Virus record (IMG/VR): IMGVR_UViG_3300048907_000177
Location: 1 to 17,376 of that record
Direction: 5' to 3' (one strand)
Length of the DNA stretch: 17,376 nucleotides
DNA from: a virus
The first letter of the stretch is position 1. Each line of letters starts with the position of its first letter. The notes beneath the pieces were generated by a model that saw only the letters and a list, made by a program, of their open reading frames with translations, searched no databases and had not been told where the DNA came from. The translations under genes and the position numbers were made by a program. This document shows, one piece after another, positions 1-16,427 of this stretch.

Positions 1-127
1 CCCGCGCCTGTTCTCCCTTTCGCGCCCCGCGCGCACAGATTGTGACGGATAGTGACGGTTCTCGACCAGGCGCCGCCGCTTCTCGGTAAGACTGAGCCGC
101 GGCTCTGGACTCCGCCCCTGCGGGACC
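1..127. repeat. Terminal overlap, copy 1 (identical to 17250-17376)
   Basis: Base-by-base comparison shows 127/127 identity with the window end. The overlap includes the first 76 nt of the terminase ORF. Confidence 0.95.
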
Positions 128-1641
128 TTAATCCGGACACTTCGTACGGGTTTGAGGTGATCGACTACGCCCGCGAAATCCTTCACCGTCCGTTACTGCC
201 GTGGCAAGAGTTCGCTGTGGTCCACGGCGGCGAGATGCTCGACGGCGCCGACTGCTCCCCGGCGCTCGGCGCGCACAGCGACGCGTGCGCGGCCAGAGAT
301 CCCCGCGACTTGACGCGGCTGTGCCGCCCGCGGTTCCGCATCGTGCTGCTGCTGGTGGCTCGGCAGAACGGCAAGACCGAACTACCGGTGATCCTGTCGA
401 TCTTCTGGCAGTTCAAGCAGCGGCTCCCCTTGATCGTCGGCACGTCCACGCAGCTGTCGTACGCGAAAGAGTCGTGGAAGAAAGCGGTCAACCTGGTCGG
501 GCGGACACCGGCGCTGGCTGACCAGCACGCGCCTGCCCGACAGTGGTATCGGCTCCAGAACAACGAGACGGAGTCGTTCACGTACGACGGGTCCCGGTAC
601 AAGATCGCCGCGGCCAACGAGGAAGGCGGCCGGTCGCTGAGCGTGGACCGGGCGATCATGGACGAGATCCGACAGCACAAGACGTACGCGGCGTGGGACG
701 CGCTGGAGCCGGCATGCTCGCCGCCGGACGCCCAAATCTGGTGCCTGTCCAACGCTGGCGACTCACGGTCAATCGTGCTGAACGATCACCAGGACGACGC
801 ACAGGTGTTCATCGAGACCGGCGTAGGCGACGACCGGATGTGCCTGCTCGAATGGTCGGCGCCGGAAGACGCTGAGCCCGACGACGTGGAAGCGCTGCTC
901 CAGGCCAACCCGCGGGTCGGGTACGGCGCTGATCTGGAGGTGCTGGTCAAGGCGGGCCGGAAGGCAAAGCGGCTCGGCGGGCAGGCGCTCGCTGGCTTCA
1001 AAACCGAGCGCATGTGCATCCGGGTGAAGCTGCTCTCCGCAGCGATCGACCCCCGGCGGTGGGCAGAGGCGCTGGCGCCGGGTGAGCTTGCCGAGCACCG
1101 CGACCGCCTGGCCGCGGTCATCGAGCTGAGCCCGAACGGCGACCATGCCACGCTCGGCGTGGCCGCGGTGGTCGACGGTGAGGACGTGCGGGTCGAGACC
1201 GTGGCCGAATGGTCCGGCGCCACCGCGGCGTCGCAAGCCGAACGTGCGCTACCTGGTCTGATCGGCATGATCCGGCCGCGGGTGCTGGGCTGGTTCCCGA
1301 CCGGCCCGGGGGCGGCGATCGGCGCCAAGCTCGGCGCGGCCGGCCAGCCGGCGTGGCTGCCGCGGGGCACCGGGCTGGCCGAGATCCGGGCCGAGACGCC
1401 GGCCGTGTGCATGGGGTTCGCTAAGGAGATTGCCGGCGGCACGCTGTTGCACTCCGGTCAGCCGATGCTCGATGCGCAGCTGGCCGAGACCGAATGGCAG
1501 TCACTCGGGCAGGCGCGGGTGTTCGCCCGGAAGAACGGCAACACGGACGCCGTGTACGCGGTGGCCGGCGCGGTCCACCTCGCGCGGACGCTGCCGGTGC
1601 GGCTCAAGGTGGCGCGCCGGTTCCAGGCGGCGCCGGGCTGA
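52..1641 (+). CDS. terL: Terminase large subunit
   Basis: 529 aa. It has a Walker-A-like VARQNGKTE, a Walker-B-like AIMDEI, and an N-terminal PRLWTPPLR...LLPWQ motif typical of actinophage TerL. The C-terminal half is nuclease-like. GTG at 52 is the first start after the in-frame TGA at 43-45. Confidence 0.9.
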   Translation: MTVLDQAPPLLGKTEPRLWTPPLRDLNPDTSYGFEVIDYAREILHRPLLPWQEFAVVHGGEMLDGADCSPALGAHSDACAARDPRDLTRLCRPRFRIVLLLVARQNGKTELPVILSIFWQFKQRLPLIVGTSTQLSYAKESWKKAVNLVGRTPALADQHAPARQWYRLQNNETESFTYDGSRYKIAAANEEGGRSLSVDRAIMDEIRQHKTYAAWDALEPACSPPDAQIWCLSNAGDSRSIVLNDHQDDAQVFIETGVGDDRMCLLEWSAPEDAEPDDVEALLQANPRVGYGADLEVLVKAGRKAKRLGGQALAGFKTERMCIRVKLLSAAIDPRRWAEALAPGELAEHRDRLAAVIELSPNGDHATLGVAAVVDGEDVRVETVAEWSGATAASQAERALPGLIGMIRPRVLGWFPTGPGAAIGAKLGAAGQPAWLPRGTGLAEIRAETPAVCMGFAKEIAGGTLLHSGQPMLDAQLAETEWQSLGQARVFARKNGNTDAVYAVAGAVHLARTLPVRLKVARRFQAAPG

Positions 1642-1671
1642 TGATGGTCAACGGCGTGTCCACCTGTCACA

Positions 1672-4600
1672 ATGCCGGTCATGGGGTGGATTGCCGCGGG
1701 TCTGCAAGTCGCGCGTGACGTGCTGGGCCTGCCGCGCCCGTTCCATCTCGACCTGGAGCCGCTCCAGACTTTCGACCTTGCCCCGCAGCCGGTGGATCGT
1801 CTGCTGGCCGCGATGCGGTCCGGCGCCGGCCCGGCGTCGCGCACTGACGCGCTGTCCATCGCCGCGGTGCAGCGCGGCCGAAACGAGCTGTGCGCGCTGG
1901 CCACGCTGCCGCTGCGCCTGTTCCAGGGGCTGACGCCGGTCGACTCGCCGCTGTTCCGCCAGTTCGATCTTGACGTGCCGAACGTCGTGCACATGTCGAT
2001 GACGATCGAGGATCTCGCCTTCGAGGCGATCGCGTGGTGGCAGGTCGTCGGGCAGGACTTCGACCGCTACCCGATGGCAGTTCGGCGCATCGAGCCCTGC
2101 CGTGTGCAGTTGACCCGGCCGGACGGCCCGCCGCGGCCGGATGACCGGCGCTACGTGTGGATCCGCCGGGAGACACCCGCAGTCGGATGGGACATGGTGC
2201 CCGCGTCGGAGATGATCCGGTTCGACTCGCCGAACCCCGGCCTGCTCAAGTCGTGCGGCCGGATGATCCGGATCGCGCTGGCGTTGGACCGGCTGATCGA
2301 GATGTACGGAAACAACCCGGCGCTGCGTGATCTGTTCACCGCGAACACGGACGCCCCGGTTGACATGCCGGAAGACTCCGAGGTGGCCGCGTTCCTGGCC
2401 GAATGGGCTGCGCTGCGGTCGGTGACGCCGGCCGGCTACCTGCCCCCGCAGTTCAAAAAGGCGGACGTGTCCGTGCCGTCGCCGCGGGATCTCACCCTGG
2501 TGGAGTTGCGCTCTGAGGTCAACCTCGCGCTGGCCAATCACCTCGGGGTGGACCCGGAAGACCTGGGCGTGAACACGACGTCGCGGACGTACTTCAACGG
2601 CGTGGACCGTCGGCAGGAAAAGATCAACCGGACGTACGCGCCGTACATGAAAGCGATCACGGACCGGCTGATGATGGGCGACGTGACCCGCCGCGGGTAT
2701 CAGCCGCAGTTCGATCTGACCGGCTACCTCAAGTCGGACCCGAACACGCAGGCAAGCTACTGGGCTGCCCTGAAGGGACTCAACGTGGTCGATGAGCTGT
2801 GGATCGGCGAGCAGGCCGGCATCGATCCGGCGGTGACCCGGCGGGCGATGCGTGCCGCCCCGGCACCGGCGCCGGCCGCGGACGCCGCGGTGAACGGGCG
2901 CCGGCCGGCAATCCAGCTCGGCGACATCACGCCGGCCCGTACCTTCGCCGACTGCCGGCCGGCGTACACGTTCCAGGCGTCTGAGTTCGCCGGGTCAACA
3001 CCGGCGCCGACCGTGGACCGCGCGGCCCGAACCATCACCGGCTTGGCCGTCCCGTACGGCGCGGTGGCCAACAAGTACGGCCTGAAGATCACGTTCGAGC
3101 CCGGGTCCCTGGAGTACGGCGACGCCGCGCGCATGCCGCACCTGAAGGACCACATGACGCCGGTCGGTTTCCACCGTTCCGTGAAGGACTCGGCCAACGG
3201 CCCGATCGTCGAGCTCGCCGTGTTGGACGCGCCGGACGGAAGCCCTGCCAAGACCGAGCGTGACCAGCTGCTCTACGACGCTGAGCACGGCCTGTACTCA
3301 GGCCTGTCGATCGGCGTGGACTACTCGCTCGACCCTGCCGACGGTGACGTCGAGATCGACGACGACGGGGTCTATCACGTCCGGCGTGCCACGTGGCGCG
3401 AGACCAGCACGACGTACATGCCCGCATTCGATGACGCACGCGTGACCAGAGTGGCCGCGAGCCTGACAGGAGGAACCACTGTGGAACGCTGCCAGCACTG
3501 CGGGCACCCGCACATGCCGGGGATCGCGTGCCAGACCTTCATCGCGCAGCTGCGCACGCAGCCCGACCCGGCGCCGCAGCCCGACCCGGTACCGGCGCCG
3601 CAACCTGCCCCGGTGCCCGCCCCCGCACCGGGGCAGCCCGACGCCGCTCAGTTCGCCGCGTTCGCTCAGGCAATGGGCATGCAGGTGTCGCCGCTCGGCC
3701 TGATGGCGCCGGGCCCGGTGCCGGTCAGCCCGCACACCGGTGTCGCCGTCGTCAGCGAGCCGGTCCCGTACCGGTACGACCGGCACGGCAACCTGCGAGC
3801 CGGCGCGCATGATTTCTCGACGGACATCTTCATCGCGCACAACCCCAAGTACGACGGCCCGGAAGACCGGACCGCGGCGGCCAAGCGCATCGAGCACTGG
3901 CTGTCGTACGCGTTCGGCGGGGAGGATGGGCAGCAGCACCTCGGCAAGCTGGCCGTGCCGGGGTCGGCCGCTCAGCAGCAGTACGCCATCACGCCGGCCA
4001 ACGTCGTCAACCTGAACTACCCGCAGAACCATCCGGAGATGTACGTCGACCAGCTCGACTACCTCTATCCGATGTACCAGGAATTCAACAAGGGCACGCT
4101 GGACGTGCTGACCCCGTTCGTGCTACCGAAGTTCTCGGCGTCGTCGGGCCTGGTCGCGGATCACGTGTCCGGCGTGGAGCCGACCCCGGGCGCGTTCTCG
4201 GCGACCGCGCAGACGATCACACCGTCAGCGCTGTCCGGCAAGGTGGAGATGCTGCGTGAGGTCTTCGATCAGGTCGGTTCCCCGCAGGCGTCGGGACTGA
4301 TCTGGCGGCAGATGGTCCGCGGCTGGTACGAGGGCATCGAGGCCGCGATTCAAGCGTTCTTCGTCGCGAACGCGGCCAGCATCCCGGACATCGCGCTGGG
4401 CACGGCGGTCACGGACGCCGCGATGGACACGTCCCTGGCGACGTTCATCGCCGCTCTCCAGTACATCCGCGGCGGCGACCGCTACCGCAAGATCTTCACC
4501 CAGGTTGATCTGTACAACAAGCTGATCAACGCGAAGGACACCACGAACCGGCCGCTGTACCCGCCGCTCGGCGCGATGAACGCAGCCGGCGTGGCGGGCC

Positions 4601-4848
4601 CGGAGGCGAACTACATCAACGTCCGCGGGAAGCTGTTCGTCCCTGAGTGGGCGACCGCGGCGTCGGGCTCGGTGGCCGCGTCGTCCTGGATGATGGACCC
4701 GGACGTCGTCGGCGTGTGGCTGTCGGTCCCCAAGCGGATCGATCTGGAGTGGCGCGTGGCGTGGGTGGACATCGGAATCTGGGGTTACAAGGCCCTGGCC
4801 ATCACGGACTTCACGCGTACCCGTGAGCTGATCTACGACCCGGTCTAA
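1672..4848 (+). CDS. Portal / HK97-type prohead protease / major capsid protein in one continuous reading frame
   Basis: 1058 aa with no in-frame stop. Roughly aa 1-390 are portal-like (SIAAVQRGRNELCALATLPLRLF, EMIRFDSPNPGLL, LVELRSEVNLALANHLGVDPEDLGV, SRTYFNGVDRRQEKINRTYAPYMKAI). Roughly aa 450-598 are prohead-protease-like (ITGLAVPYGAV, PHLKDHMTPVG, GLYSGLSIGV, RETSTTYMPAFDDARV). A Pro/Ala linker follows. Roughly aa 650-1058 are HK97-fold capsid-like. Confidence 0.85.
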   Translation: MPVMGWIAAGLQVARDVLGLPRPFHLDLEPLQTFDLAPQPVDRLLAAMRSGAGPASRTDALSIAAVQRGRNELCALATLPLRLFQGLTPVDSPLFRQFDLDVPNVVHMSMTIEDLAFEAIAWWQVVGQDFDRYPMAVRRIEPCRVQLTRPDGPPRPDDRRYVWIRRETPAVGWDMVPASEMIRFDSPNPGLLKSCGRMIRIALALDRLIEMYGNNPALRDLFTANTDAPVDMPEDSEVAAFLAEWAALRSVTPAGYLPPQFKKADVSVPSPRDLTLVELRSEVNLALANHLGVDPEDLGVNTTSRTYFNGVDRRQEKINRTYAPYMKAITDRLMMGDVTRRGYQPQFDLTGYLKSDPNTQASYWAALKGLNVVDELWIGEQAGIDPAVTRRAMRAAPAPAPAADAAVNGRRPAIQLGDITPARTFADCRPAYTFQASEFAGSTPAPTVDRAARTITGLAVPYGAVANKYGLKITFEPGSLEYGDAARMPHLKDHMTPVGFHRSVKDSANGPIVELAVLDAPDGSPAKTERDQLLYDAEHGLYSGLSIGVDYSLDPADGDVEIDDDGVYHVRRATWRETSTTYMPAFDDARVTRVAASLTGGTTVERCQHCGHPHMPGIACQTFIAQLRTQPDPAPQPDPVPAPQPAPVPAPAPGQPDAAQFAAFAQAMGMQVSPLGLMAPGPVPVSPHTGVAVVSEPVPYRYDRHGNLRAGAHDFSTDIFIAHNPKYDGPEDRTAAAKRIEHWLSYAFGGEDGQQHLGKLAVPGSAAQQQYAITPANVVNLNYPQNHPEMYVDQLDYLYPMYQEFNKGTLDVLTPFVLPKFSASSGLVADHVSGVEPTPGAFSATAQTITPSALSGKVEMLREVFDQVGSPQASGLIWRQMVRGWYEGIEAAIQAFFVANAASIPDIALGTAVTDAAMDTSLATFIAALQYIRGGDRYRKIFTQVDLYNKLINAKDTTNRPLYPPLGAMNAAGVAGPEANYINVRGKLFVPEWATAASGSVAASSWMMDPDVVGVWLSVPKRIDLEWRVAWVDIGIWGYKALAITDFTRTRELIYDPV
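3481..4848 (+). CDS. Possible nested, in-frame internal-start product (linker plus major capsid protein, 455 aa)
   Basis: A perfect AGGAGG at 3468-3473 is followed by a 7-nt spacer and an in-frame GTG at 3481. This sits exactly between the protease-like and capsid-like segments. Confidence 0.5.
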   Translation: MERCQHCGHPHMPGIACQTFIAQLRTQPDPAPQPDPVPAPQPAPVPAPAPGQPDAAQFAAFAQAMGMQVSPLGLMAPGPVPVSPHTGVAVVSEPVPYRYDRHGNLRAGAHDFSTDIFIAHNPKYDGPEDRTAAAKRIEHWLSYAFGGEDGQQHLGKLAVPGSAAQQQYAITPANVVNLNYPQNHPEMYVDQLDYLYPMYQEFNKGTLDVLTPFVLPKFSASSGLVADHVSGVEPTPGAFSATAQTITPSALSGKVEMLREVFDQVGSPQASGLIWRQMVRGWYEGIEAAIQAFFVANAASIPDIALGTAVTDAAMDTSLATFIAALQYIRGGDRYRKIFTQVDLYNKLINAKDTTNRPLYPPLGAMNAAGVAGPEANYINVRGKLFVPEWATAASGSVAASSWMMDPDVVGVWLSVPKRIDLEWRVAWVDIGIWGYKALAITDFTRTRELIYDPV

Positions 4849-4898
4849 GTCGTACCCGGCGGTGGGGTGGTAAGTGCTCACGCGCTTGCCGCCCCCCA

Positions 4899-4916
4899 AT
4901 GTTTCACGTGAAACAT
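4899..4916. repeat. Perfect 18-bp AT-rich palindrome ATGTTTCACGTGAAACAT in the capsid-downstream intergenic gap
   Basis: Read directly: ATGTTTCAC followed by GTGAAACAT. It lies in the 93-bp gap between 4848 and 4942. Confidence 0.9.
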
Positions 4917-4941
4917 CCAAGATCGAGGGAAGGGGCCCGGG

Positions 4942-5349
4942 ATGGGCGACCAGACGAACGAAGAGATCGCCGCGGAGCGTGACCGGCTCCAGGCCGAGAA
5001 TGAGCAGCTCAAGGCGCAGCTGTCCGCAGTCGGCGCGGGCACGACCCAGGCCGCGGCGCCCGCGCACACGTTCCAGCTGTCGGAGGCCGACCGGCAGGAA
5101 TTGGAGCAGCGCGGTTGGATCAACTACCGCGGCACGGTCATGACGACCGACGACGTCCGCCGCGCGCTCGGCAAGGATCAGGGGAAGGTGAAGATCAAGG
5201 ACGCTCCGAAGGACGCGCCCAAGCCTCCGACGCTGCCGACCCGCAACCCGGTGGCCGGCGTCGACTACGTGCCCCCGGCGACCGCGTCCGACGTCCCGAA
5301 CACGGAGGCCCCCTCGGACCGGCCTCGCTCCCGGCGCGGCGGGAACTGA
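4942..5349 (+). CDS. Coiled-coil protein of unknown function (scaffold- or decoration-like by position only)
   Basis: 135 aa. An RBS-like GAGGGAAGGGG lies upstream. The N-terminal heptad-like stretch is EEIAAERDRLQAENEQLKAQL, and the tail is Lys/Pro-rich. Confidence 0.7.
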   Translation: MGDQTNEEIAAERDRLQAENEQLKAQLSAVGAGTTQAAAPAHTFQLSEADRQELEQRGWINYRGTVMTTDDVRRALGKDQGKVKIKDAPKDAPKPPTLPTRNPVAGVDYVPPATASDVPNTEAPSDRPRSRRGGN

Positions 5350-5355
5350 CCTGCC

Positions 5356-5958
5356 ATGGCCTGGGCTCCCGACTACGTGACAGCGGCGAACCTCGATTCC
5401 TACCTGGAGATCGCGGACTCCGTCGATGACACGTTGCTGGCAGGCTGGGCCACCGCGGCGTCCCGCGCGGTCGACAACTGGGCGAACCGGCAGTTCGGGC
5501 AGCTCGCCGCGGCGGCGGCCCGGACCTACCGGGAGGTGCCGTTCTACAACTGGCGGACCGGCCTGTGGGAATTGCAGATCGACGACGTCCAGGACTTGAC
5601 CGGGATGACGGTCAACGGGGTCGCGTTCGCGAGCTCAGGCGCGGTGCTGCTGCCGGACAACGCGCCGTCCGATGGCGTCCCGTACACCCGGATCGGGTTC
5701 GCGGTCGTGCCTGTGCAGGCGAGCCCTGGCGTGTCCGTGACGAACGTGATCGTCGCGAAGTGGGGCTGGACTGCCGTGCCCGCGGCGGTACCGATGGCCT
5801 GCCGCTTGCAGGCGGCCCGCTGGAACTTCCGGCGTAACTCGCCGCACGGTGTGGCCGGCTCGCCCGATCAGGGGTCCGAGGTGCGGCTGTTGGCCAAGCT
5901 GGACCCGGACGTGGCCGTGACCCTGGCCGGTCTCGGTCGACCGCGGCGGCCCGGCTGA
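5356..5958 (+). CDS. Head-to-tail adaptor (gp6-like connector)
   Basis: 200 aa. The N-terminus PDYVTAANLDSYLEIADSVDDTLLAGWATAASRAVDNWANRQF matches the typical head-tail connector signature. Its position after the capsid module fits. Confidence 0.75.
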   Translation: MAWAPDYVTAANLDSYLEIADSVDDTLLAGWATAASRAVDNWANRQFGQLAAAAARTYREVPFYNWRTGLWELQIDDVQDLTGMTVNGVAFASSGAVLLPDNAPSDGVPYTRIGFAVVPVQASPGVSVTNVIVAKWGWTAVPAAVPMACRLQAARWNFRRNSPHGVAGSPDQGSEVRLLAKLDPDVAVTLAGLGRPRRPG

Positions 5959-6383
5959 TGGATCTCTACGCGCTGGCCACCCAGATCGGCATGGCCCTCA
6001 ACGCGGTCACGCCGGCCCTGCGGGTCTACCCGTACGGTGCCGACAAGATTGAGGCGCCGGGCGTGGTCGTCACCATGCCGGACGAGTACGGGCCGTCCTC
6101 GTACGGCCGGGGCGCCCGGCACCTGACCTCGATCGGCGTGCTGCTGTGTGTCCGCGGCGCCGCGGGGGTCCGGCCGCGCCGGGCGTCGCTGAAACAGCTG
6201 TACGCCTACTTGCAGGAGACCGGCACCGGGTCGATCCTCAAGGCCGTGGAGGAATACGCGTACACGGCCTGCATCCCTGGCACGATGGCCTGGAAACGAA
6301 CCACGTTCGACGTCCTGTCAATCGCGGGCGTCGAATACCTCACTGCTCTACTCGAATTCGACGCCGATGGCGTAGCGACCTAG
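5958..6383 (+). CDS. Neck / tail-terminator-like protein
   Basis: 141 aa. It is TGATG-coupled to the adaptor and sits immediately upstream of the major tail gene. The motif RVYPYGADKIEAPGVVVT resembles neck and tail-completion families. Confidence 0.6.
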   Translation: MDLYALATQIGMALNAVTPALRVYPYGADKIEAPGVVVTMPDEYGPSSYGRGARHLTSIGVLLCVRGAAGVRPRRASLKQLYAYLQETGTGSILKAVEEYAYTACIPGTMAWKRTTFDVLSIAGVEYLTALLEFDADGVAT

Positions 6384-6393
6384 GAGACCGGCC

Positions 6394-6804
6394 ATGCCTT
6401 ACACCCCCGTGCACGGCAAGGGGACCGTGCTCAAGCTCGGCGCCAACGACATCAGCCTGTCCACCCAGAATTCGGCGTTCTCCGGGTCGGCCGAGATCGC
6501 GAAGTCGTCCGGCTACACCGTCACGAACCACACCAAGGTCGCCGGGATCGTCGACGGACAGTTCACGGCGAACGGCTGCTACGACATCGGCGCGACGACC
6601 GGCACGAACACGCTGCTGGAGGGCAAGGAAGGCACGTCGTTCTCGATCACGCGGCAGGTGGCGGGCACCGGCTCGGGTAAGCCGCAAGAGGTCTTCACCG
6701 GCCTGCTCTCCAAGTTCGACGTGTCCGACCCGTACGACGGCCTGGTCCAGTGGTCGGCGACGTGGGAAGTCAGCGGTACGGTGAACCGGACCGCTCAGCC
6801 CTGA
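6394..6804 (+). CDS. Major tail protein
   Basis: 136 aa with a strong RBS (TAGGAGA). Composition is Gly/Thr/Ser-rich and beta-type, ending in WSATWEVSGTV. It lies directly upstream of the chaperone pair. Confidence 0.75.
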   Translation: MPYTPVHGKGTVLKLGANDISLSTQNSAFSGSAEIAKSSGYTVTNHTKVAGIVDGQFTANGCYDIGATTGTNTLLEGKEGTSFSITRQVAGTGSGKPQEVFTGLLSKFDVSDPYDGLVQWSATWEVSGTVNRTAQP

Positions 6805-6821
6805 TCGAGGAGAACCCCAAC

Positions 6822-7184
6822 ATGCTCAGCAGAGACGAGATCCTCGCGCGGAAGACGAACGCGCCGGGCCCGCAGCCATACCAGCTGTCGGACGGGTCGG
6901 GTGAGGTGATGATCCGTGGCCTGTCGGTCCGTGAGCGGCAGGCGGCCGGCGTGGCGGGTCAGGACCGTGACGCTGACGGGGTGACCCGCTCGACCGCGCT
7001 GATCATCGCCGCGGGGCTGGTCGAGCCGGCGCTGTCTCTTGAGGACGTGGAGGCGTGGTGTGACACGCCAGGGCAGGCCGAGGTGGTGGAGCGGTTGGCC
7101 AACAAGATCGCGGACCTTTCCGGCCTTGGTGAGGGTGCCGGGAAAAGCGGCGTACCGGCAGTTCGACGCAAATCCCGATCTTGA
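6822..7184 (+). CDS. Tail assembly chaperone (G-like, unshifted product)
   Basis: ATG at 6822 follows GAGGAG. The 120-aa product reads MLSRDEILARK...VMIRGLSVRERQ...LVEPALSLEDVEAW...LSGLGEG, typical of chaperones between the major tail protein and the tape measure. Confidence 0.8.
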   Translation: MLSRDEILARKTNAPGPQPYQLSDGSGEVMIRGLSVRERQAAGVAGQDRDADGVTRSTALIIAAGLVEPALSLEDVEAWCDTPGQAEVVERLANKIADLSGLGEGAGKSGVPAVRRKSRS

Positions 7185-7326
7185 GTTTGAGCACTTGCTG
7201 TGCGCTGAGTTGGGCGGGATGACCGTTGAGGAGATGAGGGATCGCATGACCAACGCCGAGTATGTGCGGTGGTCGGCGTTCTTCGCCCGGAAGGCGCAGC
7301 GTCAGCAAATCGCGGGCGGCAAGTGA
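6822..7326 (+). CDS. Tail assembly chaperone frameshift product (GT-like), requiring a +1 shift at about 7146
   Basis: The overlapping frame (open 7039-7326) encodes GMTVEEMRDRMTNAEYVRWSAFFARK, a typical T-extension motif. GGGAAAA lies in the overlap region. Confidence 0.6.
7140..7146 (+). promoter_or_regulatory. Candidate recoding (slippery) site GGGAAAA
   Basis: The upstream frame reads GGG AAA AGC. The downstream frame reads G GGA AAA GCG. Confidence 0.55.
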
Positions 7327-7736
7327 TGGCCACGATCAACATTGCGGGGCTCAAGGAATTCCAGCAATCGCTGAGGCAGATGGATGCCCAACTGCCGCGG
7401 CTGCTGCGGCTGGTGTTCAACGAGTCGATGGGGGTCGTGATCGGCTATGCCCGGGATCACATGCCGTCCCGGACGGGCCGGGCGGTGAATTCGCTCAAGC
7501 CAAAGTCGCAGCAGCGCACGGCCCGGATATCGATGGGCGGGAAAGCGTCGCCGTACGCGCCGTGGCTGGACTTCGGTGGTGAGGGCCGGATCAAGGGCCG
7601 GCCTCCGGCGCGGTCGTTCATGAAGGGCGGCCGGTACGTGTACAAAGGGCTGGCCGTCAAGAGCACGGAGATCACTGAGATCATGGCCCGCGGGATGACG
7701 GACATTGCCCGTCAGGCCGGATTGGACGTGAGGTAG
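7326..7736 (+). CDS. HK97 gp10-like head-tail joining / tail completion protein
   Basis: ATG at 7326 overlaps the T stop (TGATG). The sequence MATINIAGLKEFQQSL...ARDHMPSRTGRAVNSL...ASPYAPWLDFGG fits the gp10-family pattern. Confidence 0.75.
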   Translation: MATINIAGLKEFQQSLRQMDAQLPRLLRLVFNESMGVVIGYARDHMPSRTGRAVNSLKPKSQQRTARISMGGKASPYAPWLDFGGEGRIKGRPPARSFMKGGRYVYKGLAVKSTEITEIMARGMTDIARQAGLDVR

Positions 7737-7738
7737 AG

Positions 7739-8728
7739 ATGCCGAATCAGGTCACGCTCACGTTCGCCGGTGAGGAAAAGCCGCTCGTCTCGTCGATGGA
7801 CAACGTCGGATCCGCGGCTGACCGTATGGGTGATCAGGTGGGGTCAGCGGCGCGGCGGGTGTCGGATAGCTCGGGGGAGGCGGCCGGCGGACTGCATCGT
7901 ACGGGTGAGGCGGCAGATAAGGCCGAGACGTCCCTGATCGGTGTCCACGACGTCATCGACGGCACGGCGACGATCATGCAGGGGCCCGGTAAGGCCGGCG
8001 TGGTCGCCTACATTCAAGGCTGGGCTGATCTCGCTGGTGGTCTGGCCCCGCTGATTTTGCAGCTGGCAGAGACGAAGGTGGGCATCCTCGCTCAGGCCGC
8101 GGCGTCGCATGTCGCCGCCGCGGCGTCGAAGGTGTGGGCCGGTGCCCAGTGGCTGATGAACACGGCGCTGCTGGCCAACCCGATCACGTGGATCATCGTC
8201 GGAATCGTGGCGCTGATCGCGGTCATCGTGCTGATCGCGACCAAAACGGACTGGTTCCAGAGGGCGTGGCGTGCGTCGTGGAACTGGATCAAGACCGCGG
8301 CCGAGAACACGTGGGAGTTCATCAAGAAGATCCCGGGTTGGCTGGAGTCGGCGTTCAAGAACGTGGCCCGGTTCATCTCGGCGCCGTACCGGGCCGCGTT
8401 CAACCTGATCGCGGACGCCTGGAACTCGACGATCGGCCGGCTGTCCTGGACGGTGCCGGGTTGGATTCCGGTGATCGGCGGGAATACGATCAGCGTGCCG
8501 AACCTGCCGCACTTCCATGCCGGCGGCCGGGTGCCGGGCGGTCCGGGCCAAGAAGTGATGGCGGTGCTCCAGGGCGGCGAGACCGTGTCGACGGAGGCCG
8601 GTTCGAGCGGGGACCGCACGGTGGTGATGGGCGACGGCCCGCTGATCCGGTACGTGCTCGACGCCCTCGCGACCGAGGTGTCTCGCCGCGGCGGCAGACC
8701 TGAGCACCTCGGCTTGAAGGCGGTCTGA
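7739..8728 (+). CDS. Tape measure protein (unusually short, 329 aa)
   Basis: The N-terminus is alpha-helical and Ala-rich. The central hydrophobic segment is PITWIIVGIVALIAVIVLIA. Trp-rich repeats are present, and the C-terminus reads HFHAGGRVPGGPGQEVMAVLQGGETV. It lies after the chaperone genes. Confidence 0.8.
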   Translation: MPNQVTLTFAGEEKPLVSSMDNVGSAADRMGDQVGSAARRVSDSSGEAAGGLHRTGEAADKAETSLIGVHDVIDGTATIMQGPGKAGVVAYIQGWADLAGGLAPLILQLAETKVGILAQAAASHVAAAASKVWAGAQWLMNTALLANPITWIIVGIVALIAVIVLIATKTDWFQRAWRASWNWIKTAAENTWEFIKKIPGWLESAFKNVARFISAPYRAAFNLIADAWNSTIGRLSWTVPGWIPVIGGNTISVPNLPHFHAGGRVPGGPGQEVMAVLQGGETVSTEAGSSGDRTVVMGDGPLIRYVLDALATEVSRRGGRPEHLGLKAV

Positions 8729-8729
8729 C

Positions 8730-10847
8730 GTGGGTACCCCGCTGAGCCCGGTCACGCCGCAGCTGCGCTACAACTCGGCCTGGAACCCGGTGCCCTGCTA
8801 CGCCGACGACATGCCCACGGTGATCGAGCGCGGCTACACCGACGAGGGCACTATCAAGCCGTCGCGGATGTCGATGCGGATCAATGACTCTGCGGCGCCG
8901 ACGCTGAACCCGTCGCGGCCGAACTCGCCGCTGTATGGGGTGACGGGCCGGTCGATGCCGGCGGCGATCACGTGTGGCGGGACGACCCGGGCGTGGCTGG
9001 AAACCGCGGTGCTCGACCCGGATCAGGATCAGGCGTACAGCGAGGCCTCATACTCGACGGCGTCGCCGCGGGGGAAGCGGTGGATAGATCTGGAGGCGTA
9101 CGGGCCGCTGTACCGGATAGGCCAGTGGTCTGACTTGGTGCAGGCGCCGATGACCCGCACGTTCCTGTCGTACTCGAATCTGATCGGGTTCTGGCCCGGC
9201 GATGACGCGGGCCTGTCGACTCAGGTCGGCAACGGCGGATCGTTCTCGAACGTGACCGCGGGGGATGCGTCGGCGCCGGCCGGGGCGTCCGGGTCGTTCG
9301 TGGGGCAGGCCGGCTCGCACATGGTGCTGTCGCCGCTGACGAATTCGGACACGGCCGGGTTTCAGGTCTTCTGGTCGACGGACCTGTCCGCGGTGCCGGT
9401 GTCTCCGGCGACCACGCAGTTCTTGTACTTCCGGGCCAACCCGTCGCTCATCTGGTCGGTCGAGCTCGACAACGTCGCGTTCCACCTGAAGCTGTACTCG
9501 GCGGGCACGCTGGTCGACGACTCGAACATCTCCCTGGCCGGTGTGACGACCAACTTCACGGACTGGGTGACGTGGCGGGCCAAGTGCTACCAGTCCGGGG
9601 CGGATGTGAAGTGTGAGTTCGCGTGGTACTCCAAGTCGGACAACCTGATCTGGGGGTTCACCCGCACCTATGTGGGGTTGACGTTGAACCGGCTGACCTC
9701 GATCCGGATGGAAGGCAACACGCTGACCAACGGCACCCGGTACGCCCAGATCGGCGCGTTGACCTCGGTGGCCGATGATCTCCAGTCGTACACGGCGATC
9801 GCCTCGTTCAACGGCTATGCCGGCGAGTCGACCACGACGCGGTTCAACCGGCTGATGACGGAGGCCGGGATCTCCCGGGTCGTGATCGGCACCTCGACCA
9901 CGCTGATGGGTCCGCAGAAAGCGGACACGCTGATGAACCTGCTGAAGGAGATTGCGGCCACCGAGGACGGCCTGTTGTTCGATCAGAAGGACAACCCCCG
10001 CACGGTGCTGCGTACCCGCCGCTCCCGGGTGAATCAGGCGGTCGGTCTGACCCTCGATGCGAACGTGGATATCGTCCCGCCGTTCAAGGAGCGCGTGGAC
10101 AACGTCGGCGTGGCCAACGTCGTGACGATCACGGACCGGTCCGGGTACACGGGCACGGTGACCAAGACGACCGGGTCGATGGCGGCGACCGCGTACCCTG
10201 CCGGCATCGGCACCTTCAAGGGCGGCGCCCTGCCGGACGTCAAGGTCAACCTGAACAGCGCGGTCGACGACATGCCGGCGATGCTGGCCTGGTATCTGGC
10301 CCGCGGCACGGTGCCGGGCCCGCGCTGGCCCACGGTCACGATTGAGGTGGGGCAGCGGTCGCCGGGCCTGGCCGCGGCGGCGAAAGCGCTCGAAATCGGC
10401 GACCGGCTCCAGATCACGAACCGGATGGCCGACCCGATCGACTTGCAGATCATCGGGATCCGGGAGCGGATCGGGATCTTCGCGTGGGAGTTCACCTTCA
10501 CCTGCATTCCGAACGCCGTGTTCGACGCGGGCGCCGAGGACGACACCACGCACGCGCTAGACACCTACGCGAATACGATCATCACCGCGCCGGCTCCGGC
10601 GACCACGGGCACATCCATGGTGGTCGGGTCGGCGGACCCGGACGATGTGTGGTCGGCGACGTCGCTGCCGTACCCGATCATGGTGGCCGGTGAGAAGATG
10701 ACGGTGACCGCGGCGACCGCGCCGACGCTGGTGTCGGGGACGTGGCGGCAGACGTTGACGGTCACCCGGTCGGTCAACGGCATCGTCAAGGCTCAGGTCG
10801 TCGGCACGCCGGTGAACGTGTTCGCCCCGTACAGAGAGGCCTGGTAA
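8730..10847 (+). CDS. Minor tail protein (distal-tail / tip complex-like)
   Basis: 705 aa. The GTG start is 1 nt after the tape-measure stop. It is the largest tail gene downstream of the tape measure and looks beta-rich. Confidence 0.7.
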   Translation: MGTPLSPVTPQLRYNSAWNPVPCYADDMPTVIERGYTDEGTIKPSRMSMRINDSAAPTLNPSRPNSPLYGVTGRSMPAAITCGGTTRAWLETAVLDPDQDQAYSEASYSTASPRGKRWIDLEAYGPLYRIGQWSDLVQAPMTRTFLSYSNLIGFWPGDDAGLSTQVGNGGSFSNVTAGDASAPAGASGSFVGQAGSHMVLSPLTNSDTAGFQVFWSTDLSAVPVSPATTQFLYFRANPSLIWSVELDNVAFHLKLYSAGTLVDDSNISLAGVTTNFTDWVTWRAKCYQSGADVKCEFAWYSKSDNLIWGFTRTYVGLTLNRLTSIRMEGNTLTNGTRYAQIGALTSVADDLQSYTAIASFNGYAGESTTTRFNRLMTEAGISRVVIGTSTTLMGPQKADTLMNLLKEIAATEDGLLFDQKDNPRTVLRTRRSRVNQAVGLTLDANVDIVPPFKERVDNVGVANVVTITDRSGYTGTVTKTTGSMAATAYPAGIGTFKGGALPDVKVNLNSAVDDMPAMLAWYLARGTVPGPRWPTVTIEVGQRSPGLAAAAKALEIGDRLQITNRMADPIDLQIIGIRERIGIFAWEFTFTCIPNAVFDAGAEDDTTHALDTYANTIITAPAPATTGTSMVVGSADPDDVWSATSLPYPIMVAGEKMTVTAATAPTLVSGTWRQTLTVTRSVNGIVKAQVVGTPVNVFAPYREAW

Positions 10848-11353
10848 TGGCGGCTGGTGATCCGATCCTCGCGTCGGACTACGCGGCGATCAAGCGGACG
10901 TCGAAGGACACGCCGGTGTGCCGGCTGGTGCAGGCGGCCGCTCAGTCGATGCCGGACAACGTGGCGACCGCGCTGACGTTCGCCGCCGGGTCGGAGGTCA
11001 CGGACAACGATGGCTTCCATGACACGGTTACGAACAACACGCGGATCACGCCGACGTTCCCCGGCTGGTATCTGTTCACCGGGGCGGTGTATCTGGCTGC
11101 GGCCACGACACCGGTCACCCGTGAGGCGTACTTCCGGCAGAACGGTGCGACGTCGATCGCGCCGGGTAGTCGCGACGTGGGTCTGGCTATCACGTCGGCC
11201 ATCGACGTGGAGCCGGCGTACATCTACTGCAACGGCACGACCGACTACGTGGAGTTGATCTGCCGGCAGGACTCGGCGGCCGCGGTGAACACCAACGTCG
11301 CATCGCAGCAAACGTCGGCGTTCGGCTGCACTCTCGTGCGGCAGACTGCGTAG
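10847..11353 (+). CDS. Minor tail protein, possible receptor-binding jelly-roll protein
   Basis: ATG at 10847 overlaps the preceding stop (TAATG). At 168 aa it is the last tail gene before lysis. The motif GWYLFTGAVYL...YIYCNGTTDYVELI is reminiscent of C1q/TNF-like tips; this is a weak recollection. Confidence 0.55.
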   Translation: MAAGDPILASDYAAIKRTSKDTPVCRLVQAAAQSMPDNVATALTFAAGSEVTDNDGFHDTVTNNTRITPTFPGWYLFTGAVYLAAATTPVTREAYFRQNGATSIAPGSRDVGLAITSAIDVEPAYIYCNGTTDYVELICRQDSAAAVNTNVASQQTSAFGCTLVRQTA

Positions 11354-11354
11354 G

Positions 11355-11690
11355 GTGGCGGACGTGAAGAACAACCTGGGTGTGGTGATCGTCGCCGTGT
11401 GCGGCACGCTGGTCGTGCTGGCGTTCATCGCCGGGTACACGGTGCTCGGTGCGACCGGCCGGGACTCCGCTGAGCTGTCGCGGTTCGTGAACACGCTGCT
11501 GAACGCGGCCGGTCTGGTGTTCTCCGGGGTCGGCGGTATCGCCGGTATCGCCGGGTTCCTGAAGGCGCGGCAGGCCGCGGAGCAGACCAACGGTGGCCTG
11601 GATGAGCGGATCGTTGCCGGCGCCCGGGTGGCGCTGGCGGAGCAGCGGACGGCGGATGTGGCGCCGGGGGGAGAGCTACGTCGTGAGTAG
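11355..11690 (+). CDS. Holin-like membrane protein
   Basis: 111 aa with two hydrophobic segments (LGVVIVAVCGTLVVLAFIAGYTVLG and LLNAAGLVFSGVGGIAGIAGFL) and a charged C-terminus. It overlaps the next gene. An alternative in-frame GTG start lies at 11364. Confidence 0.6.
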   Translation: MADVKNNLGVVIVAVCGTLVVLAFIAGYTVLGATGRDSAELSRFVNTLLNAAGLVFSGVGGIAGIAGFLKARQAAEQTNGGLDERIVAGARVALAEQRTADVAPGGELRRE

Positions 11691-12387
11691 TTGGGTGCTG
11701 GTGCCGGCGCTGGTGTCGCTGCGCAATGAGTTCAACGTCCTGGCGCCGGGCCGGGATAGGGCGTCGGACGGCTCGATCGGCGACGCGGCGCATCGGGCTG
11801 AGGGCCCGTCCGGGCACAACCCGGACGACACTCCGGGGTCGACGCCGGAGAATTCGGACGCGGACGCGATTCCGGAGGTTCGGGCTATCGACGTCGATGC
11901 TGATCTCCGTCAGCCCGGTTGGTCGATGGAGCGGGCCGTGCAGATCATCGTCGACCGGCATCGGTCGGGCGTCGACACCCGTCTGGACTACGTGATCTAT
12001 AACCGGCGTATCTGGGCCCGCGCGTACGGCTGGGAGGAGCGCGAGTACGTCGGCGTCAACCCGCACGACAAGCACGCGCACTTCTCGTGCCGGGCCGGGT
12101 CGGGGACGGCCGGTAACCCGGAGGCGTTCACGGGCCCGTGGGGGCTCCTGGCAGATGAGGATGAGGGCATGGATGCGGCAGAGTTCATGGCGTCGGTGGC
12201 GCGCGCCGTCCGTAACAAGGCGGACGACCCGGCGTCGGCGGGTGACCGGGCCAACCGGACCAATTTTGCGGTCGGCGTGCGGTTCGCGCTGGGCTACAAC
12301 TGGAACGTCCAGGACGGCGACGACACGGTCCCGGATGAGAAGACGGTAATGGGCAAGCTGGACGAGATCCTCTCGCACGTCGAGTAA
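11683..12387 (+). CDS. Putative endolysin (zinc-peptidase-like peptidoglycan hydrolase)
   Basis: GTG at 11683 is preceded by GGGGGGAGAG. The 234-aa product has SDGSIGDAAHRAEGPSGHNPD ... RAIDVD ... NPHDKHAHFS, which resembles His/Asp metal-binding motifs of LAS/M15-type cell-wall peptidases. It is the last gene of the late operon. Confidence 0.5.
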   Translation: MSSWVLVPALVSLRNEFNVLAPGRDRASDGSIGDAAHRAEGPSGHNPDDTPGSTPENSDADAIPEVRAIDVDADLRQPGWSMERAVQIIVDRHRSGVDTRLDYVIYNRRIWARAYGWEEREYVGVNPHDKHAHFSCRAGSGTAGNPEAFTGPWGLLADEDEGMDAAEFMASVARAVRNKADDPASAGDRANRTNFAVGVRFALGYNWNVQDGDDTVPDEKTVMGKLDEILSHVE

Positions 12388-12416
12388 GCCTGCCCTAAGA
12401 AAAACTCGAGGTATGG

Positions 12417-12455
12417 GGGCCCGGCGCCGGGGAAGTGGCGCCGGGCCCTTTCTGT
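12417..12455. terminator. Bidirectional intrinsic terminator between convergent genes
   Basis: A perfect 12-bp stem (GGGCCCGGCGCC / GGCGCCGGGCCC) has an 8-nt loop and is followed by TTTCTGT. An A-run at 12398-12405 supplies a U-tract for the opposite strand. Confidence 0.8.
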
Positions 12456-12501
12456 GTCTCCGAGCGGCGCGGTCACTGCTCTCGTGCCGTCCGGGACCCG
12501 T

Positions 12502-13002
12502 CTAGCCGGCGCTGGTGTTGTGGAAGCCGACCGGGTCGCCGTTCTCGTTGAGGTGCTCGGGGGCGTAGACGTTGGTCTCGGCGACGCCGGTGTCCCGCGG
12601 GGGCACGTCGGATCCTGCGATCGCGGCCGGCGGCTGGTGGTTGAGGATGCTGGGCCGGGTCGCGCGGTCGGTGCCGTCGTCCAGGCAGTCGCGGTTATGG
12701 GCCTCGTACTGGAGCCGGTCAGCGTCGGTCATGTCCCTGCTGTAGAGCGTGTACAGCACGCGGATGGCGCCGTCGTCCAGGATCGGAATGTCGATGGCGA
12801 CGAACGCGTGACCGTCGTCGGTGTCGTTGAACAGCCTGATGTGCACGTCGTAGCGGTCGGCGATGTCGAGCATCTGCCGGCGGCTGAGGTTGTGGCGGCG
12901 GTAGACGGTCGTGGTGGGGGCGGGGAGCGCGCCGGCCTTGACCGCGTCGTTGAGGGACTGGGCGGCGGCGACGTTCAGGGCGGCTGTGTTGGGGTTCGTC
13001 AT
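12502..13002 (-). CDS. Hypothetical protein, the only minus-strand gene (candidate regulator)
   Basis: 166 aa with very high GC3 in this frame. The overlapping + strand ORF is Val/Gly/Asp-rich shadow. It is divergent from the early operon and has a terminator downstream. Confidence 0.8.
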   Translation of the reverse strand: MTNPNTAALNVAAAQSLNDAVKAGALPAPTTTVYRRHNLSRRQMLDIADRYDVHIRLFNDTDDGHAFVAIDIPILDDGAIRVLYTLYSRDMTDADRLQYEAHNRDCLDDGTDRATRPSILNHQPPAAIAGSDVPPRDTGVAETNVYAPEHLNENGDPVGFHNTSAG

Positions 13003-13009
13003 GCCAACG

Positions 13010-13039
13010 ACGATAGGGCACGACCGTGGCCACGGTCAA
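13010..13039 (-). promoter_or_regulatory. Leftward promoter, apparently leaderless
   Basis: On the minus strand TTGACC (13039-13034) is followed by 18 nt and then TATCGT (13015-13010). Seven nt further is the ATG at 13002. Confidence 0.6.
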
Positions 13040-13062
13040 CGGTTGACCGTTGATCGTTGACG
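13022..13062. repeat. Operator-like palindromes and heptad repeats
   Basis: A 16-bp palindrome GACCGTGGCCACGGTC spans 13022-13037. It overlaps a 15-bp palindrome GGTCAACGGTTGACC at 13034-13048. Tandem heptads GTTGACC GTTGATC GTTGACG span 13042-13062. Confidence 0.7.
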
Positions 13063-13072
13063 GGGGTATCGT
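13043..13072 (+). promoter_or_regulatory. Rightward early promoter, apparently leaderless
   Basis: TTGACC (13043-13048) is followed by 18 nt and then TATCGT (13067-13072). Eight nt further is the ATG at 13081. Confidence 0.6.
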
Positions 13073-13080
13073 CCCGAGCC

Positions 13081-13275
13081 ATGACGAAAACCAAGATTCG
13101 TACGGCCGCGGCGACCGCGGCCCGGCGCCGGCAGGCTCGCCTCCGCCGTATCGCGAATGCGGTGGCCCTGCTGCTGCGGCACGGCTACACGGTGGTCGAG
13201 CCGGCGCCTCCGGACCCTTGCGGCGATAACTGCCCGGACCCGTGGGCGCACGCTGAGGGTGGTCACGATGTCTGA
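13081..13275 (+). CDS. Small basic protein (Cro-like by position; possible DNA binder)
   Basis: 64 aa from the ATG at 13081: MTKTKIRTAAATAARRRQARLRRIANAVALLLRHGY. It is the first gene of the rightward operon and is ATG..TGA-coupled to the next gene. Confidence 0.6.
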   Translation: MTKTKIRTAAATAARRRQARLRRIANAVALLLRHGYTVVEPAPPDPCGDNCPDPWAHAEGGHDV

Positions 13276-13918
13276 CCAGCCGCCCCCGTGCGGGGACCAC
13301 GATGCCAATGAGCTGTCGTGCGCTGCGTGCGGCACGGTGCGCACCGTCTTCTACGCTGGCGTCGCTGTCGGCGTGGACGCGGGGGACCCGGTGCCCGTGG
13401 TGGCACCTCAGCTGCATCCGCAGATCTACGACGGGTCGATCGGTGATCTGATCAACCTGCCAACGGCGGCCGAGAAGTTGGCCGCGCGTGTGGCGGTCCT
13501 GTTGCAGGGTCACGCGGCCGGCCTGCACGTGCTACCGGCGATGGATTGCCCGTCGTGCTCGCCGGTGGAGACCCCGAACCGTGACCGGCTTCGGCGCCGC
13601 GCGGCCCTCGCGCTAGATCGCGTGTTCGAGGTGATGGGTGAGCGACAGGACGACGGCGATGGCGGAGAGCACGCGGTGGGGGTGGCCGAGGAGCGCTTCG
13701 TACAGTCAATGGGCGACTACGTTCTGTCGCGATTGCACCATAACAGTCATTATGGTGTAGCGGCCGAGCGCTGTCCTACCTGCGATTCGCCCGCGCCAAA
13801 CCTCCACCCGGCGATGCAGTCAGAGGGCGAGGTTCAGCCCTGCATCGACCGCTGGCACCTCACGCACAACATGGCCACGCATAAGCGGAATTATGGGGCC
13901 GACGATGCGCGCGGTTGA
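13268..13918 (+). CDS. Cys-rich hypothetical protein (possible zinc-binding)
   Basis: ATG at 13268 follows GAGGGTGG. The 216-aa product carries CGDH...CAAC, CPSC and CPTC motifs plus His-rich stretches. Confidence 0.7.
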   Translation: MSDQPPPCGDHDANELSCAACGTVRTVFYAGVAVGVDAGDPVPVVAPQLHPQIYDGSIGDLINLPTAAEKLAARVAVLLQGHAAGLHVLPAMDCPSCSPVETPNRDRLRRRAALALDRVFEVMGERQDDGDGGEHAVGVAEERFVQSMGDYVLSRLHHNSHYGVAAERCPTCDSPAPNLHPAMQSEGEVQPCIDRWHLTHNMATHKRNYGADDARG

Positions 13919-14084
13919 GCTGTTCGGCGGGGAGGGCGCTCCGTGGGCGTCGCCGCGCGGACTGTCGCTGTGCGTGCCGTGGCAGTACACGTACTTCCTT
14001 GGCCTGCAAGCGGCAGACCACATTAGACGGTCAATGGCGGAATCCGTTGGCCTGTATACGCCGGCTAAGGAGAATGCATCATGA
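13905..14084 (+). CDS. Small hypothetical protein
   Basis: 59 aa from the ATG at 13905, with an alternative ATG at 13893. Its stop overlaps the next start (ATGA at 14081-14084). GC3 is moderately high. Confidence 0.4.
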   Translation: MRAVELFGGEGAPWASPRGLSLCVPWQYTYFLGLQAADHIRRSMAESVGLYTPAKENAS

Positions 14085-14332
14085 CCGTGTTCATCGGCGT
14101 GCTGATCATCGCAGCCGTCATCGCGACGCCGATCGTCGCGGACGCGTGGGCCCGGCAGGCGCGGGCGCGCCGGGTCGTGCCGAACGTCAAGCCTCCGGAG
14201 GCGGTGAACGCGTTCATGGGCCGTGAGCCGGACACGTCGATGTGGGGCTACGCCATCTGGGTCAGGGACGGCGAGCTCTATTGGTGCCCGTACGTGCGGC
14301 CGGCGGCGCCTGTAGATGGAGATGGTGCGTGA
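14081..14332 (+). CDS. Small N-terminally membrane-anchored protein
   Basis: A strong RBS AAGGAGA lies upstream. The 83-aa product starts with MTVFIGVLIIAAVIATPIVA. Confidence 0.7.
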   Translation: MTVFIGVLIIAAVIATPIVADAWARQARARRVVPNVKPPEAVNAFMGREPDTSMWGYAIWVRDGELYWCPYVRPAAPVDGDGA

Positions 14333-14421
14333 TGCCGTGGTGGTTCTGGATGACCATGGGGTTTGCGCTCGGGTCGATCTGGGCCAGCGCGCTCATGTTC
14401 TGGCTCGCGGGTAGGCGGTGA
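14332..14421 (+). CDS. 29-aa Trp-rich single-pass membrane micropeptide (not in the ORF track)
   Basis: Hand translation gives MPWWFWMTMGFALGSIWASALMFWLAGRR. The ATG overlaps the upstream stop (TGATG). Its own stop overlaps the helicase GTG (GTGA). Confidence 0.5.
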   Translation: MPWWFWMTMGFALGSIWASALMFWLAGRR

Positions 14422-15839: not shown

Positions 15840-16057
15840 CCTGGGGAAATAGCACTTCTGCACCACGGAAACGGGCTTTACCCCTCGGACCCCACGCGTA
15901 ACTACCCCCCATGAGGGCACCATGTCAATACCCCAATCCTGTGGTGCCCTTATGGGGTGCACATGGGCGTCCACCTACGCGGACGCGCGCGCTCTTTACT
16001 CACTGTTACTTACTTCCTTACGCTCTGTAAAGTCTGGTGTTGACGAACCCGGCACCA
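15786..16057. repeat. Iteron-like (G/T)GCACCA cluster with an AT-richer TTACT patch; candidate replication origin
   Basis: GCACCA occurs at 15788, 15798 and 15808 with exact 10-bp phasing, and again at 15860, 15917 and 16052. Inverted copies are TGGTGCCC at 15942-15949 and GGGTGCAC at 15955-15962. TTACT repeats lie at 15996-16021. Confidence 0.55.
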
Positions 16058-16139
16058 GCGGGGGACGATCGCTGTGCGGGCCCGCTTGTTGGGGGCGGGC
16101 CCCACTACCCAACCGAACCCAACTGGAAGGGATCATCCA

Positions 16140-16424: not shown

Positions 16425-16427
16425 CCG

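Follow-up and report, generated by a model that had tools for sequence, protein, structure and literature searches.

A conserved internal start site probably nests the capsid gene within a portal-protease-capsid fusion gene of very small actinobacterial phages

In phage lambda, the head-assembly gene C carries an in-frame internal ribosome-binding site and start codon from which the shorter protein Nu3 is made (Shaw & Murialdo 1980, Nature 283:30, as cited in PMC8508860). The protease is part of the long form, and the short form, which has the same C-terminus, is needed in excess for procapsid assembly; the common C-terminal part targets the protease to the procapsid. The I and Z genes of phage Mu are a similar nested case. 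Here we analyse a stretch of viral DNA, IMG/VR record IMGVR_UViG_3300048907_000177 (positions 1 to 17,376, the whole of which we call the window), in which a single long open reading frame (ORF) joins a phage portal, a prohead protease and an HK97-fold capsid protein. Inside this ORF, a perfect Shine-Dalgarno (SD) sequence precedes an in-frame GTG at position 3481. We propose, with a probability of about 0.85, that this GTG is a functional internal translation initiation site and that the long ORF is a nested two-product gene.

The comparison with lambda had already been drawn in the first-pass annotation of the window, and its functional side stands: the window holds two same-frame ORFs with a common stop codon and a conserved internal ribosome-binding site and start, and the protease belongs to the long form. 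What does not carry over is the nature of the nested product. Nu3 is a free scaffold, whereas the nested product of the window would be the major capsid protein itself, a capsid precursor with its own N-terminal scaffold-like segment. Moreover, the long form of lambda C does not contain the portal, which is included here, and the two genes have no sequence relationship. Both lambda products were shown experimentally, while the two products described here are predicted from sequence. The principle is thus that of the classical nested head gene, with the coat protein itself as the nested part of a triple portal-protease-coat fusion.

Two other head-assembly systems share parts of this design. 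One of them, herpesvirus UL26/UL26.5, is with lambda C/Nu3 the functionally nearest known case, and the protease fold found here is common to both. In the herpesvirus genes, as here, a protease of the assemblin/T4 gp21 fold lies N-terminal to an assembly protein, and UL26.5, an in-frame nested gene with the same 3' end, yields the assembly protein by itself, as we propose for the window. The herpesvirus short form has its own promoter and mRNA, however, rather than an SD within the same mRNA; its nested part is scaffold only and its portal is unfused, in both of which it differs from the window gene. In phage HK97 (gp4/gp5), as here, we find an HK97-family portal, a prohead serine protease fold and an HK97-fold capsid, and the window gene is also HK97-like in having ahead of the capsid an N-terminal segment that maturation probably removes. 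In HK97 each of the three has its own gene, in the window they form one fusion, and the N-terminal segment, a coiled-coil delta domain in HK97, is here a CCHC knuckle followed by a Pro-rich linker.

Fusions of protease and capsid are also known from cultured small actinophages, in which they are annotated as 'major capsid and protease fusion protein' (Arthrobacter clusters AN, AX and FE, the Gordonia clusters CW and DM, Rhodococcus phage RRH1 and Microbacterium cluster EE; PMC7302621, PMC5513430). Both papers describe simple fusions and make no mention of an internal start, and the same is true of a preprint on small actinophages; in the open-access literature we found no description of the internal start or of a portal-protease fusion. 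These phages resemble the window in their genome size (14-17.5 kb), in their gene order and in having a protease-scaffold-capsid ORF. In structure the window gene belongs with these fusions, and the window shares with them the joining of protease and HK97-fold capsid in one ORF and a small actinobacterial siphovirus-type genome, but their portal is a separate upstream gene while that of the window is fused in frame. The nearest cultured phages, those of Arthrobacter cluster AN and Rhodococcus RRH1, share ~28% identity (for cluster AN over portal and protease), and a megablast search of the long ORF against cultured phages found no DNA similarity.

The internal site was first noticed as AGGAGG (3468-3473) followed by seven nucleotides (aaccact) and by a GTG (3481-3483) in frame at codon 604, and this is indeed how the sequence reads: the local codons are ctg ACA GGA GGA ACC ACT GTG, for L T G G T T V. 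The nested ORF (3481-4848) and the long ORF (1681-4848) use one frame and therefore have a common stop codon and a common C-terminus. In the 17,376-nucleotide (nt) window, counting both strands, AGGAGG is present in a single copy, compared with 6.5 +/- 2.6 copies in shuffled sequences and at least one copy in all 200 shuffles. Its core GGAGG is depleted as well, with 31 occurrences observed and 50 +/- 6 in the shuffles. Thus, the genome seems to avoid SD-like strings, and its only perfect copy is found at the internal site. At 3481, pairing with the anti-SD reaches -10.3 kcal/mol, the best value among the 17 candidate gene starts that were scored from terL to the primase gene. A good SD is also found ahead of the gene for the major tail protein (ATG 6394; window 6373-6396), namely TAGGAGAccggccATG (-7.3 kcal/mol; the starts at 4942 and 8730 score somewhat better), so that the two highest-copy virion proteins would both be served by good ribosome-binding sites.

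The strongest evidence comes from relatives. A protein search gave 451 matches, of which the best 120 were analysed for the junction motif. Nearly all of these 120 are full-length (~970-1080 amino acids), have the same architecture and lie mostly on contigs of 16.5-18 kb; the portal-protease-capsid fusion is genuine and common. Hosts or assemblies with relatives include Actinoplanes, Micromonospora, Amycolatopsis, Streptomyces, Saccharomonospora and Nocardioidaceae, and one Micromonospora relative lies within a 569-kb contig, apparently as a prophage. The motif ...RVTxVAAS-x-T-G-G-x(1-3)-[M/V]-x(1-2)-CxxC was found at the junction in 119 of the 120 homologs. At the start position 78 homologs have Met, 40 have Val and one has Leu; Ile or any other residue never occurs. 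Where DNA was read, the Val is always GTG (48% of Val codons), and the lone Leu, which lies 6 nt downstream of a GGAGGA, is TTG, a codon that accounts for 6.8% of Leu codons in these genes.

The DNA itself was read for 55 loci from IMG/VR, genomes and one metagenome contig, with at least 46 distinct junction sequences. An SD-like core precedes an in-frame start by 4-10 nt, nearly always 4-8 nt, at every one of the 55 loci; three of them had been missed by the automated pass because of a script artefact and are positive in the sequence as read. Among the distinct junction sequences the start is ATG in 32, GTG in 13 and TTG in one, and the core is GGAGG in 32. MAFFT column statistics under-count the start codon, which one-codon indels split over two columns, and the motif-anchored analysis is the valid one. 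Relatives at 33-40% identity have different residues at the junction (KGKE-M, KEGET-M, RKDTH-V, REDAH-V) and still keep the fusion, the purine-rich tract and the ATG or GTG, as in AGGAAAGGAAAGGAA-ATG and AAGGAAGG..ATG. In one metagenome-assembled genome of Nocardioidaceae (L076, 8660-8750), the ORF that spans the junction has 618 amino acids between stops and the portal is apparently unfused; this locus keeps CAGGAAGGAaccaccATG at the protease/capsid junction and may represent an intermediate stage through which the fusion evolved. Relatives that retain the fusion might have lost the SD or the GTG; instead, an SD-like tract with an in-frame ATG, GTG or TTG is kept in every relative examined, which makes it very probable that the phage can make much capsid protein on its own and little of the three-part fusion.

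In fact, the codons of the site are unusual for these genes. In a codon alignment of 30 distinct full-length ORFs (993 columns), codons ending in A or T have a mean frequency of 9.4%, and the G+C content at third codon positions of the window's long ORF is 0.90. The three columns richest in A/T-ending codons, out of all 993, are residue 600 (Gly, 97% GGA), residue 599 (Thr, 80%) and residue 601 (Gly, 70%). The Thr599 codon ends in A in 73% of the sequences, while gene-wide ACA makes up 3.4% of Thr codons and GGA 7.4% of Gly codons. The second Gly has its wobble base just outside GGAGG, and all four bases occur freely there. GGAGG itself occurs in the alignment bin of the site in 26 of the 30 sequences and in any other bin in at most seven. 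Judged by these codons, selection at the internal site acts on the nucleotides and not on the protein, because rare A-ending codons are fixed exactly where GGAGG is spelled. The local RNA is also modestly less stable around the start, with a family-average folding energy of about -12 kcal/mol between -70 and +20, compared with -16 to -20 kcal/mol elsewhere.

A separate observation concerns Val591 (3442-3444), which belongs to a conserved ARVT motif 13 codons before the internal start. Its codon is GTG in 28 of 30 relatives, compared with 48% gene-wide, and has no purine tract upstream.

Domain searches bear out the proposed order of portal, protease and capsid (Table 1). The long ORF has 1055 amino acids from ATG 1681, or 1058 codons (1672-4848) from the first in-frame ATG at 1672. 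Phage_portal is matched by all 40 aligned homologs, two of which (P0054 and P0083) exceed the gathering cut-off when scanned singly, and the family profile matches the solved HK97-family portal 3kdr (E=7e-9). Among PHROG families, the long ORF matches protease and fusion families. An AlphaFold2 (AF2) model of residues 430-603 has a predicted local distance difference test score (pLDDT) of 87.8, with residues 430-586 folded with high confidence, and the PDB folds that match it best are those of the T4 gp21 prohead protease (probability 1.00) and of herpesvirus assemblins. Disorder sets in after residue ~587 in this model, and the internal start at 604 comes next.

Three residues past the internal start begins a CCHC zinc-knuckle-like motif, whose four columns are invariant in 40 homologs and whose span of 14 residues equals that of retroviral nucleocapsid knuckles. 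The motif is missing in many distant relatives (33-40% identity), with the CxxC kept in L043, L051, L058 and L074, and is absent from cultured phages. The internal site had been placed exactly at the boundary of protease and capsid; it does lie at the end of the protease fold, but the knuckle and a Pro-rich linker still precede the capsid fold. Direct sequence searches with the capsid part were uninformative (noise only in Pfam and PDB sequence searches, no match in NCBIfam and no significant BLASTP similarity to the Elkhorn capsid part), so that its identity is taken from a fold search and from the Pfam matches of homologs. Nearly all of the top 50 PDB matches of the capsid-part model are HK97-fold shells of phages, gene transfer agents and encapsulins (E 3e-6 to 4e-4), and P0054 and P0083, which are 57-60% identical homologs, match Pfam Phage_capsid_4 above the gathering score.

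Two Ala/Pro-rich linkers are present in the long ORF, at 2824-2976 (portal to protease) and 3559-3639 (knuckle to capsid). Both differ strongly in length among relatives, with indels of up to tens of residues, and behave as flexible tethers.

No purine tract precedes the portal start, where anti-SD pairing amounts to -1.1 to -3.2 kcal/mol. The long ORF probably starts at ATG 1681 and not at 1672: the family consensus portal start ATG-GGN-TGG, MGW... in the window, is found in 28 of 30 relatives, and ATG 1672 falls inside the CACAAT-gccggtc block (1668-1680). In most relatives a conserved block, gTACACTsCCGATC, stands directly before ATG-GGN-TGG (L002-L029; window 1642-1683) and is often preceded by a palindrome (gtttcacgtgaaac in L014, ttccggaa in L007). 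This block may be a -10 element giving a leaderless mRNA. A consensus scan for internal promoters, confined to the sigma-70 type, found none near 3481.

It had further been claimed that no comparable signal lies ahead of the protease, and the alignment agrees: M393 is absent from most relatives, and V448 is GTC in 18 of 30, with no purine tract upstream. As candidate protease starts, M393 (ATG 2848) and V448 (GTG 3013) were rejected, neither being conserved as a start codon or having an SD. Between portal and protease, which are fused in frame, there is neither a stop nor a conserved start; on this evidence the protease can only be made as part of the long form.

The signal is also found outside the family. 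Nine cultured representatives with a protease-capsid fusion were checked for an SD and a start at the junction, and six of them (Elkhorn, RRH1, Penoan, Atraxa, GMA5 and McGonagall) have an SD and an ATG at the protease/scaffold junction. The junction reads AGGAAAGAGGcaacaATG in Elkhorn, GGAAGGAaccccagccATG in RRH1 and AGGAGGAcaccacaATG in GMA5, the last being AGGAGGA-N7-ATG. A short product is annotated in none of the six, and the nested start probably extends to many cultured phages.

Several observations weigh against an internal start at 3481, or lower the force of the evidence for it. ATG, GTG and TTG together make up ~7% of the codons in the ORF, so an in-frame start would fall within 5-9 nt of a given SD by chance in roughly 10% of cases, and the window alone is weak evidence and not decisive. 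The site had also been called the strongest SD-like hexamer noticed in the window. No other canonical hexamer exists there, and the site is the best of the 17 gene starts, but it is only 10th by anti-SD pairing among the 643 ATG and GTG of the + strand, with nine others stronger. This ranking was obtained with a shorter anti-SD: with a longer 16S tail several GGAGGTG-type sites outscore 3481, but that ranking is dominated by GAUCA pairing and is uninformative. In addition, the window has GTG where most relatives have ATG, the stronger start codon. Its RNA around the site shows no significant fold (z = 0.39) and no unusual lack of structure (-16.8 kcal/mol, compared with a mean of -16.3), and the centroid fold partly pairs the GTG. 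The AF2 model of the capsid part is of low confidence (pLDDT 56). Three of the nine cultured phages, Emperor, Yavru and BlueFeather, have no clear signal, and in these the fused gene apparently works without it, or with a signal that was not recognised. Finally, the sequences compared are phylogenetically related, so that the counts are not those of independent events and overstate independence. Could the SD-like hexamer and the GTG simply have come together by chance in GC-rich coding sequence? The single-window coincidence of ~10% and the nine stronger + strand sites favour this view, but the abnormal codon usage and a signal conserved across 119 proteins and 55 loci refute it and leave it a negligible probability.

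Other explanations accept the conservation and give it a different cause. T-G-G-x-[M/V] might be a protein-level feature, a flexible hinge or the protease's own cleavage site, in which case all capsid would come from proteolysis of the long polyprotein and no internal initiation would occur. Gly-Gly in a disordered tail directly past the protease fold is a plausible position for cleavage or a hinge, the long ORF stays open across the whole family, and the three cultured fusion phages named above are without an obvious internal signal. However, selection on the protein leaves unexplained why the rare GGA and ACA are fixed, why ATG, GTG and TTG are used exclusively, with no Ile and no GTC, and why the purine tract and the start are kept while the amino acids change completely. 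It would also impose 1:1 synthesis of portal and capsid, and we regard this explanation as very improbable. The tract could instead be an intragenic ribosome-pause signal that gives the protease time to fold, the start codon being incidental. Its position at a domain boundary fits, and since SD-like motifs are otherwise depleted in the window, they appear to matter to the ribosomes of this organism. SD-induced pausing is itself disputed, though, and for pausing an in-frame ATG, GTG or TTG 4-8 nt downstream is superfluous, yet it is conserved in 55 of 55 loci; Met and Val alternate there with no other hydrophobic residue. A pause signal is thus highly improbable. In dnaX and prfB, an internal SD a few nucleotides upstream of the shift site is a known stimulator of programmed frameshifting, and most ribosomes might in the same way leave the portal-protease frame here. 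But aaccactgtggaacgc contains no slippery heptamer, the alternative frame that was checked runs for 77 codons to a stop, with no prompt termination, and relatives have no conserved shift site beside the SD. For the lack of a slippery site and the 77-codon alternative frame we reject this model and give it virtually no credence.

Returning to internal initiation at GTG 3481, how might the two products be made and used? The sequence signal, its family-wide nucleotide conservation, the domain identities and the SD-less portal start are what we observe; from these we infer the steps of initiation, product ratio, co-assembly and cleavage. Ribosomes starting at the SD-less ATG 1681 would make few copies of a portal-protease-knuckle-linker-capsid polyprotein. 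AGGAGGA (3468-3474) would recruit ribosomes to GTG 3481, giving a 455-amino-acid protein (an estimated 48 kDa, with the predicted N-terminus M-E-R-C-Q-H-C) that has the C-terminus of the long form. This short form would consist of the CCHC knuckle, a Pro-rich/helical segment that is probably a scaffolding (delta-like) domain, and the HK97-fold capsid protein. It would be made in large excess, as it needs to be, because the shell contains hundreds of coat subunits and only 12 portal subunits. The stoichiometry argument made when the site was first noticed is consistent with the SD-less portal start and with the lack of a conserved start ahead of the protease. In assembly, the capsid/scaffold moiety of the long form would carry the protease, and here also the portal, into the growing procapsid; the common C-terminal moiety would let long and short forms co-assemble, and the protease would then cut the parts apart.

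The rest of the window fits a minimal phage. A 127-bp exact direct repeat at its ends (1-127 and 17250-17376) shows that the assembly is closed (circular or circularly permuted) and that the genome has 17,249 bp. Besides the long ORF it encodes a terminase, an adaptor, a tail terminator, the major tail protein, a tape-measure-like protein and a primase, and it is a complete, very small siphovirus-type genome. The apparent start of the terminase ORF is at 52; its true start may lie upstream, across the repeat junction. The sole tape-measure-like ORF (7739-8728) is very short, with 329 amino acids. Its best PHROG match, at E=8e-28, is to an endolysin family, and many tape-measure families come next, which suggests that the tape measure of this minimal genome has a lytic domain built in.

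Table 1. Positions of the features discussed, in window coordinates except for the last row, which refers to the cultured-phage loci
Feature	Position	Strand	Details
SD-less region before portal start	1668..1680	+	CACAAT (1668-1673), 7 nt (gccggtc), ATG 1681
Long ORF	1681..4848	+	portal - Ala/Pro linker - prohead protease - CCHC knuckle - Pro-rich linker - HK97-fold capsid
Portal domain	1897..2772	+	residues 76-367; Pfam Phage_portal E=6e-9
Prohead (capsid maturation) serine-protease domain	2959..3429	+	residues 430-586; phrog_2263 E=7.5e-21, phrog_80 E=0.004
Internal SD AGGAGGA	3468..3474	+	spelled by codons ACA GGA GGA
Internal in-frame start GTG	3481..3483	+	codon 604; (3481-1672)/3 = 603
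Nested ORF, predicted 455-residue short product (capsid precursor)	3481..4848	+	predicted from the conserved SD and start
CCHC zinc-knuckle-like motif	3490..3531	+	C-x2-C-x3-H-x5-C (C607, C610, H614, C620)
Pro-rich linker, variable length	3559..3639	+	residues 630-656; alignment, low pLDDT
HK97-fold major capsid domain	3778..4845	+	about residues 703-1058, boundaries approximate
Cultured-phage junction sites	L060 4166-4185; L061 (RRH1 orf7, ~codons 270-274); L063, L064, L066, L067		

We also envision a wider scheme, which we hold tentatively and would not bet on at even odds. Portal, protease, scaffold and coat, all four head-assembly functions, would be provided by one gene through two translation products. 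The long form, made rarely, would be a covalent portal-protease-coat nucleator, 12 copies of which would build the unique vertex, carry exactly one protease ring inside, seed the shell via their own coat domains and then self-cleave, while most of the coat protein would come from the internal start. It would follow that, in many cultured small actinophages, the genes annotated as 'major capsid and protease fusion' are nested two-product genes, and the CCHC knuckle at the new N-terminus might be a previously unknown scaffold or nucleic-acid-binding element.

An internal start would explain how a 12-copy portal can be fused to a coat protein needed in hundreds without 1:1 synthesis, and it is a sign that the smallest genomes of tailed phages have a very economical module for head assembly. 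No current gene call in this family of more than 450 proteins includes the predicted short capsid product, which has probably been missed as well in cultured phages of Arthrobacter, Gordonia and Rhodococcus with a 'capsid and protease fusion' gene. Thus, the old question of how the protease and exactly one portal enter the procapsid would become directly testable in culturable systems.

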